Shown one piece after another: positions 61,784 through 62,287 of a DNA stretch of 64,000 nt. The DNA lies in assembly GCA_033648345.1 (NCBI GenBank), contig GCA_033648345.1_4121.1; one strand, 5' to 3'. Source of the stretch: a phage. A program made the position numbers and the translations under genes. Below the pieces are notes generated by a model, which was not told where the DNA came from, did no database searches, and saw only the letters and a program-made list of their open reading frames with translations. Every line of letters starts with the position of its first letter. Within the stretch, counting starts at the first letter, position 1.

Positions 61784-62287
61784 ATGAAATCTATTATTGC
61801 CAATAACGAAATCACCGCAAAAACTGTTCGTCTAGTTACGGAAGGTAAAAGTGAAGTCATGGCAATCTCTAAAGCACTTGCTTTAGCAGAAAATGAAGGT
61901 CTGGATTTGGTGGTTATTGGAGCAGGTGATGAACCTGCTGTTAAAATCACTAATCTGAACAAATTCAAATACGAATTGAAACAGGCTGAAAAAGCCTCTC
62001 TTAAGAAACAGCGTCAAAACACTGTTAGTACTAAAGAGATTCAATTCAACTTCGGGACTCAAGAGCATGATTTGCTTATTAAAGCGAAAAGTGCAGGTAA
62101 GTTCCTAGAAGAAGGTAAGCAAGTACACATTGTAATGAAAACCACAGGTCGCGGAACAAACGCAACTGTTATCCAAAACAACGTTGATGCAATGGAGTCA
62201 TTCGTTAGTCGTTTGGGTAACGTAACGTATGTCCAGAAAGTTGAATTCCAGGGTAAGAAGGTAACCTGTACTGTCAAAGTAAAATAA
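61784..62287 (+). CDS. infC: translation initiation factor IF3 homolog
   Basis: Aligns end to end with bacterial IF3: VRLV...EGLDLVVI...EPAVKI..L.KFKYE (N domain), KEIQF...T.EHDL..K....FLEEGKQV (C domain). Confidence 0.8.

Follow-up and report, generated by a model that had tools for sequence, protein, structure and literature searches.

An IF3-family protein encoded by a RaK2-like jumbo phage and its divergent codon-inspection loop

The stretch of phage DNA analyzed here, hereafter referred to as the window, comprises 64,000 nucleotides of contig GCA_033648345.1_4121.1 in the NCBI GenBank assembly GCA_033648345.1 and encodes, at 61784..62287 of its plus strand, a homolog of the bacterial translation initiation factor IF3. 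The open reading frame (ORF) begins with ATG, spans 167 codons, and closes with a TAA stop followed immediately by a second TAA, with no in-frame alternative start upstream. It is preceded by a predicted promoter and a small conserved ORF and followed by genes for a ClpS-like adaptor and a KTSC-domain protein. The Pfam families IF3_N (PF05198) and IF3_C (PF00707) are matched at residues 7-71 and 82-165, with E-values of 1.4e-15 and 5.7e-12 and scores of 57.6 and 45.8 bits that exceed the respective gathering cutoffs of 26.9 and 34.8, while for the NCBIfam infC equivalog TIGR00168 the score is 100 bits and the cutoff 60. PHROG 9787, a family specific to this phage IF3 and labeled "translation initiation factor", is matched at 2.8e-66, with residues 1-167 aligned to positions 1-167 of the 168 in the profile. 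In a phmmer search against the PDB, IF3 chains alone stand at the top (E ~1e-15), and BLASTP aligns IF3 of Escherichia coli K-12 with the phage protein at 40% identity over 120 residues (E 2e-17). A HMMER scan of the whole library returned 4845 relatives at E<=0.001 and just 5 at E<=1e-30, which places the phage protein on a small, divergent branch within a very large family.

The fold leads to the same assignment. An AlphaFold2 model built from 24 homologs, with a mean predicted local distance difference test (pLDDT) score of 82.9, comprises an alpha/beta N-terminal domain (strands 14-19, 22-27, 41-46, and 52-56; helix 28-38), a long helix at residues 58-78, and a C-terminal domain of beta-alpha-beta-alpha-beta-beta topology. 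All 23 Foldseek matches in the PDB at E<=0.001 are IF3 or mitochondrial IF3. The best full-length superposition is with chain 5lmn_X, the 30S-bound IF3 of Thermus thermophilus (template-modeling score, TM, of 0.78 over 169 columns), and further matches are 1tig (TMt 0.82) and 1tif (TMt 0.77). The original prediction, made by reading the sequence, had proposed a phage-encoded IF3 homolog covering both domains and had named a profile search and a structure prediction as ways of checking it; Pfam, TIGR00168, and the predicted fold all agree with that proposal, apart from a detail in the motif comparison, where the E. coli segment had been quoted as FLEEGKKA and actually reads FLEEGDKA in the K-12 protein.

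The gene is under strong purifying selection. In the comparison with phage 121Q, the only one in which the synonymous rate (dS) is below 1, the ratio of nonsynonymous to synonymous substitution rates (dN/dS) is 0.07, and the deeper comparisons, in which dS is saturated, give 0.14-0.23. The guanine-cytosine (GC) content of the gene is 38%, close to the 36% of the window, which together with the 40% identity to E. coli IF3 indicates that the gene is not a recent capture from the host. The product is a genuine IF3-family protein maintained by selection.

Comparison with bacterial IF3 (TIGR00168; E. coli P0A707, T. thermophilus 5LMN) reveals shared domains, a shared lysine-rich helix, fold, and charge pattern, and shared key residues, namely those corresponding to D106, K110, R133, G132, Y75, and R25 of the E. 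coli protein. Individual positions were traced in an alignment that combined E. coli IF3 with 25 members of the clade, each sharing 50% identity or more with the window protein, and with 145 further IF3 cluster representatives. Within the clade, R16, K54, Y63, D96, K100, K102, K106, and R123 are invariant or nearly so, and the correspondence between E. coli and phage positions is R25=R16, R66=K54, Y75=Y63, D106=D96, K110=K100, R112=K102, R116=K106, G132=G122, and R133=R123; K72, K94, and E95 (E. coli numbering) are likewise retained across the 25 members. The retained residues have been assigned roles in contacting the initiator-tRNA elbow, in fidelity, and in 30S binding (PMC9723500, PMC3401457), those of R25/Q33/R66 and Y75 being described in one of these studies (PMC9723500). 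Both proteins have an isoelectric point (pI) of 9.54 and combine an acidic N-terminal domain with a basic linker and a basic C-terminal domain, the pI of the linker segment being 10.1 in the phage and 10.0 in E. coli. The phage protein differs from that of E. coli in lacking a tail at either end (9 residues at the N-terminus, KKKQ at the C-terminus), and it contains 4 Arg and 22 Lys residues, compared with 15 Arg and 21 Lys. This looks like a wholesale shift from Arg to Lys, consistent with a genome of 36% GC, from which the particular charge lost at position 131, described below, must be kept apart.

A distinctive feature of the protein lies in its start-codon inspection loop. In an ungapped alignment extending from the conserved FLEEG motif, the RFRGR loop of E. 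coli IF3 corresponds to KTTGR in the phage protein, so that the basic residue found at position 131 in bacterial-type loops is absent from the window protein. Position 131 is occupied by V, A, T, S, I, or Q in all 25 clade members and is never basic, in contrast to the R or K found in 116 of the 145 other representatives. Further clade-wide changes affect F130 (T, A, or I), E134 (mostly G), and R99 (T, N, S, or A). The closest out-group proteins, which are 38-49% identical and metagenomic, several of them encoded on contigs of 90-620 kb, are likewise without a basic residue at 131, as is the related Vibrio phage 2.275.O, which has H at this position. The RFRGR motif is highly conserved in bacteria, where R131 touches start-codon bases +2 and +3 as well as base +4 (PMC11775629). 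The R131P substitution favors initiation at non-AUG codons, on leaderless messages, and with unconventional tRNAs; E. coli IF3 carrying a KKGK loop no longer inhibits leaderless mRNA; and mycoplasmas with P, F, or Y at position 131 use unconventional initiators (PMC11775629). Mitochondrial IF3 and yeast Aim23p retain a lysine at position 131 (PMC3401457).

The phage protein thus resembles mammalian mitochondrial IF3 (KKGK), Mycoplasma IF3, and the E. coli infC R131P variant in departing from RFRGR at the codon-reading position, and those variant-loop systems tolerate leaderless, non-AUG, or unconventional-initiator-tRNA initiation. Mitochondrial IF3, however, is basic at 131, where small or aliphatic residues are found in the phage clade; the phage protein also has no terminal extensions, and the genes of the phage look canonical, with Shine-Dalgarno (SD) motifs and ATG starts. 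No link between the RFRGR motif and phage IF3 was found in the literature searched. The label of start-codon fidelity factor given to the product in the original prediction goes further than the data allow, since the replacement of RFRGR by KTTGR makes fidelity the activity least certain to have persisted. The features of the locus are collected in Table 1.

Table 1. Features of the IF3 locus in the window
Feature	Position	Strand	Basis and remarks
Conserved 64-aa ORF upstream of IF3	61520..61714	+	PHROG 15132 at 1.3e-37; present in all relatives examined
Predicted sigma-70-type promoter	61711..61739	+	-35 TTGACA 61711-61716, 17-nt spacer, -10 TATAAT 61734-61739; 12/12 consensus
Shine-Dalgarno GGAG	61770..61773	+	Sequence; 10 nt before ATG; kept in relatives
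IF3 homolog, coding sequence	61784..62287	+	Profiles and fold; protein 100% identical to fEgEco12 g413 "translation initiation factor IF3"
IF3 N-terminal domain, residues 7-71	61802..61996	+	Pfam IF3_N; keeps R16 (E. coli R25), K54 (R66), Y63 (Y75)
Lysine-rich interdomain linker helix, residues ~58-81	61955..62026	+	AlphaFold2 helix 58-78 and alignments; 2 residues longer than in E. coli
IF3 C-terminal (30S-binding) domain, residues 82-165	62027..62278	+	Pfam IF3_C, AlphaFold2 topology, Foldseek
KTTGR loop, K119-T120-T121-G122-R123	62138..62152	+	Divergent counterpart of the bacterial 129-RFRGR-133 loop
ClpS-like adaptor, 181 aa	62301..62846	+	PHROG 15940 at 1.9e-84; AlphaFold2 pLDDT 85.4; 13 nt past the IF3 stop
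KTSC-domain protein, 181 aa	62921..63466	+	Pfam KTSC 6.2e-14, residues 20-75; third gene of the conserved trio

The arrangement of control elements ahead of the gene is compact. The 64-aa ORF upstream ends in a TGA that falls within the -35 hexamer, and the promoter occupies the 69-nt intergenic gap; transcription predicted to start at about 61746 would produce a leader of about 38 nt. An element of the same kind is found at the same position in phages 121Q, GAP32, and XbC2, with a -35 of the TTGAC type followed 16-17 nt on by a -10-like hexamer, and Muenster has the -35 variant TTTAC at this place. From its position and sequence we infer that this element would act as the IF3 promoter, and part of the conservation of the -35 could stem from its overlap with the end of the 64-aa ORF. 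Host IF3 is kept low by AUU-dependent negative feedback on infC. The E. coli gene starts with a non-ATG Ile codon, its translation opening with "I", and bacterial infC lies in the thrS-infC-rpmI-rplT operon; the phage gene differs in starting with ATG and in being followed by the ClpS-like and KTSC genes. Two earlier claims, that a perfect TTGACA-17-TATAAT promoter precedes the gene and that its start is ATG in place of AUU, are borne out.

Other promoter-like sequences occur in the window. A near-consensus element, TTGACA-17-TATGAT (11/12), lies at 61515-61543 (+), where it overlaps the ATG (61520) of the 64-aa ORF, with its -10 inside that ORF. Allowing at most one mismatch, there are 7 matches, all on the plus strand, where 1.56 would be expected on both strands. 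The only other perfect TTGACA-17-TATAAT is intergenic, at 15780-15808 (+), where it closely follows the gene for a gp23-type major capsid protein (14540-15715). An endonuclease-like ORF of 368 aa (15844-16950, +) begins 35 nt further on; it matches PHROG 681 at 1.6e-77 and has weak Pfam matches of zinc-finger and T5orf172 type. The 29-mer of this second promoter is not present in the corresponding 50 kb of fEgEco12, where no ORF of such size follows the capsid gene, and the two sequences are not collinear at this point; the absence of both promoter and ORF from the fEgEco12 counterpart makes the 368-aa ORF probably a homing-endonuclease insertion with its own promoter.

The genes surrounding IF3 form a conserved neighborhood. 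The order RNase H, Dda-like helicase, structural protein, 64-aa ORF, IF3, ClpS-like protein, and KTSC protein is identical in fEgEco12, 121Q, and GAP32, and the window IF3 occupies the same slot, from the Dda-like helicase through the structural protein and the 64-aa ORF to the ClpS-like and KTSC genes. Muenster keeps the IF3 slot and has a Mom-like enzyme upstream of the helicase; XbC2 keeps it as well, with a third gene annotated merely as a structural protein. The KTSC protein, which always accompanies IF3 in the RaK2-like group, has been annotated variously as "DnaJ-like", "structural protein", or "KTSC domain-containing". The ClpS-like gene is probably co-transcribed with IF3. Its 181-aa product has no Pfam match, and the top 30 PDB matches of its model in Foldseek are all ClpS (TMt 0.8-0.9). 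The matching core comprises about 85 residues (~70-155) and is accompanied by a three-stranded beta domain at the N-terminus and a helix at the C-terminus, both absent from bacterial ClpS. A pair of aspartates, D82 and D83, is invariant among the homologs, and we take these to be the N-degron-binding aspartates of ClpS. A bL12-like ribosomal protein, with which the trio would have been wholly ribosomal in character, was considered for this gene and rejected (bL12 E 0.066 and TMt 0.42, as compared with TMt 0.8-0.9 for ClpS).

Variations on this neighborhood are found in more distant phages. Vibrio phage 2.275.O (MG592671.1, 349 kb), a distant relative, carries at 2483-4286 the order helicase, two hypothetical genes, IF3, bS21, ClpS-like gene, and KTSC gene, so that an annotated bS21 gene (RpsU3) stands between IF3 and the ClpS-like gene; this bS21 suggests that the IF3 slot gathers ribosome-directed genes. 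In Agrobacterium phage Atu_ph07 (NC_042013.1, 1173-2995), IF3 adjoins a gene for a ClpX-like ATPase, and IF3 is therefore located beside a component of the Clp system in two unrelated jumbo-phage lineages, Atu_ph07 and the RaK2-like phages. The IF3 of Atu_ph07 has other neighbors and a bacterial-type loop, FKGRE, unlike the K-x-x-G-R of the RaK2-like clade, and may represent a separate acquisition.

The window is 99.8-99.9% identical to Asteriusvirus jumbo coliphages (BF17, fEgEco12). The 3-kb region around IF3 is 99.7-99.9% identical to Escherichia phages BF17, fEgEco12, WPEC5, EC.P1, and WPEC3 and about 85% identical to PBECO4, 121Q, and their relatives, and the genome is that of an Asteriusvirus, a RaK2-like jumbo myovirus in a genus whose members measure 350-385 kb, and not that of a T4-type phage. 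The T4-like impression recorded earlier is explained by distant T4-like core genes: the gp23-type major capsid protein of the window matches Pfam Gp23 at 9.5e-90, and the annotation of the near-identical fEgEco12 points to a portal, a gp17-type terminase, gp32, topoisomerase II subunits, and a late sigma factor. The IF3 protein is 100% identical to those of fEgEco12, BF17, and WPEC3, 89% identical to those of 121Q and PBECO4, 68% identical to those of Klebsiella phages, and 50-58% identical to those of GAP32, CBB, XbC2, and phages of Yersinia and Erwinia. In a tblastn search it was found in 93 of 50,697 phage records, mostly RaK2-like jumbo phages, and the hosts of the RaK2-like phages that bear it include Escherichia, Klebsiella, Salmonella, Erwinia, Yersinia, Serratia, Cronobacter, Pectobacterium, and Xanthomonas. 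IF3 is a vertically inherited, syntenic core gene of the RaK2-like jumbo phages, that is, of Asteriusvirus and related genera.

The novelty implied by the original prediction does not hold within this lineage, where the gene is standard, syntenic, annotated, and published. Many GenBank records name it "translation initiation factor IF-3" or infC (e.g., those of GAP32, 121Q, and CBB), and phage IF3 has been discussed in papers of 2017, 2020, 2021, and 2025. Al-Shayeb et al. (2020) listed IF1 and IF3 among the huge-phage genes possibly redirecting translation (PMC7162821), and Iyer et al. (2021) named IF3 and the KTSC protein together in their group 2.2 of jumbo phages (PMC7824862); the paper on the virion proteome of phAPEC6, consulted for a possible packaging of IF3 into virions, does not mention it. 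Set against the known RaK2-like genes (121Q gp47, PBECO4, fEgEco12 g413, Sharanji infC, RaK2/Muenster, GAP32_313, and CBB_318), the gene analyzed here is the same, with the same neighbors and the same K-x-x-G-R loop, and nothing of substance differs, the window representing another isolate of the lineage.

The altered loop raises the question of how the phage itself initiates translation. In fEgEco12, 89 of the 92 annotated genes downstream of IF3 (97%) start with ATG, a count that rests on annotation by a gene caller that prefers ATG, and 76 of the 92 have an SD-like motif; unusual start-codon usage was rejected on this basis. The window contains no tRNA genes, and fEgEco12 has six, located about 38-43 kb downstream of IF3. 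Among them, a tRNA at 41118-41194 of PP777464.1 was called tRNA-Met (CAT) both by ARAGORN and in the fEgEco12 paper. It has a G1-C72 pair together with C4-G69 and C5-G68 and is identical at 52 of 76 positions to E. coli ileY tRNA-Ile(CAU); a blastn search with it against E. coli genomes gave no match at E<=0.01. Judged by these features, it is more likely to be an AUA-reading tRNA-Ile2 elongator than a methionine tRNA. An unconventional phage initiator tRNA was also rejected, the sole CAU-anticodon tRNA of fEgEco12 having the paired G1-C72 and resembling tRNA-Ile(CAU). Neither the start codons nor the tRNAs offer an independent genomic sign of a need for relaxed fidelity.

The interpretation that we regard as fairly probable is that the phage protein supplements or displaces host IF3 on the 30S subunit and is expressed outside the infC feedback. 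In such a scheme, IF3 would lead a unit that also contains the ClpS-like and KTSC genes and that host RNA polymerase would transcribe from the promoter ahead of IF3, and synthesis from an ATG start outside the thrS-infC-rpmI-rplT context would escape AUU-dependent feedback. The protein would bind the host 30S subunit at the IF3 site, with the C-terminal domain near h44, h24, and h45, the linker on h23 and h24, and the N-terminal domain at the elbow of the initiator tRNA, and by supplementing or displacing the host factor it would keep the subunits dissociated and speed the formation of initiation complexes on phage mRNAs over the whole course of infection. With KTTGR in place of RFRGR, proofreading would probably differ from that of host IF3 or fall short of it. 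Binding to the host 30S subunit in addition to or in place of host IF3 is supported by purifying selection and by the retention of ribosome-contact residues and charge pattern, and a remodeling of host translation initiation, as the original prediction had suggested, is plausible. Knock-down of infC delays lysis by T7 and lowers its plating efficiency, and lysate of an infC-overexpressing strain lifts the cell-free T7 titre 9.7-16-fold, indicating that IF3 dosage can limit phage yield (PMC10443043). The same idea has been put forward for other initiation components of phages, including IF1, IF3, bS21, and bS1 of huge phages and the IF3 of Atu_ph07, which are proposed to redirect host ribosomes.

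Several observations weigh against this interpretation. In vivo overexpression of infC is neutral for T7 plating (PMC10443043), so extra IF3 is not automatically beneficial. A number of positions (E. coli numbering) have lost charge or identity in the phage protein, namely R99 to N, R131 to T, R147 to S, E134 to G, and Y70 to L, and in view of these losses, the protein need not match host IF3 in 30S affinity or activity. The gene lies in the replication and structural core region, outside the cluster of small early genes. The Sharanji paper (2025), which discusses IF3, concluded that its function in phages "cannot be definitively stated" (PMC11895373), and the literature searched yielded no experiment on an IF3 of phage origin.

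Other explanations must be weighed against displacement of the host factor. A specialized IF3 with altered fidelity would bind the 30S subunit and accept complexes that host IF3 rejects, or would have a different preference for mRNAs, thereby favoring phage messages; we consider this a serious but unlikely alternative. The complexes meant are those with a weak SD, leaderless messages, non-AUG starts, or a non-canonical tRNA, and the ClpS-like and KTSC neighbors are possibly involved. The clade-wide absence of a basic residue at 131, compared with its frequency in other IF3 representatives and with the lysine of mitochondrial IF3 and Aim23p, favors such a change, as do the precedents of R131P, the KKGK loop, and Mycoplasma (PMC11775629), and the altered loop is not a sign of decay, being clade-wide and under purifying selection. 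The phage itself, however, has no visible need of altered fidelity, as judged from the start codons and SD-like motifs of fEgEco12; its only CAU tRNA is not an initiator, and the mRNA of IF3 itself is leadered and has an SD. The 36% GC genome also drives a general drift of Arg to Lys and other residues, as the 4 Arg of the phage protein against the 15 of E. coli illustrate, but drift of Arg alone would predict K at position 131 and not T, V, or A. One form of this alternative is an IF3 that keeps its 30S and initiator-tRNA contacts, has lost the basic residue that reads the codon, and shifts which initiation complexes host ribosomes accept, a possibility that can be entertained only tentatively. 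Similarly doubtful is its extension to a conserved module directed at the ribosome and at proteostasis, made up of IF3 with the ClpS-like and KTSC proteins and, in the Vibrio relative, bS21.

A shut-off of host translation is improbable, more so than a change in fidelity. In that case, a competitive or dominant-negative protein, or simply an excess of factor at the IF3 site, would depress host translation instead of stimulating initiation across the board. Roughly one in six E. coli genes start with GUG or UUG, and a stringent factor would spare phage genes of which 97% start with ATG; the strong consensus promoter and the unregulated ATG start suggest high expression, and published authors have speculated on host takeover. 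Against it, the loss of R131 argues against greater stringency, and the full two-domain architecture with tRNA-elbow contacts is more than a simple blocker needs. Finally, it is scarcely credible that the gene is non-functional, whether as host contamination, a recently captured passenger, or a decaying pseudogene. Some weak tblastn matches do lie in very short or unannotated and possibly contaminated records, such as a 2.4-kb "Listeria phage", but dozens of complete jumbo-phage genomes, drawn from four or more named genera and from unclassified relatives, carry the gene in one and the same syntenic slot, and synteny, divergence from E. coli IF3, window-like GC, an intact ORF, and a dN/dS of 0.07 refute this explanation.

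For phage genomics, the presence of the gene is ordinary, as the translation genes already listed for huge phages, the RaK2-like ones included, comprise IF3. What remains of value is that this IF3 belongs to a culturable phage of E. coli, the host with the best-developed IF3 biochemistry, infC genetics, and cryo-electron microscopy, and that the clade-wide replacement of the codon-inspecting R131 leads to a concrete and falsifiable prediction of altered proofreading. The idea that phage infection alters the message selectivity of IF3 dates from the early 1970s. If the phage protein were indeed re-tuned in the way considered above, it would be a virus-encoded, message-discriminating IF3.

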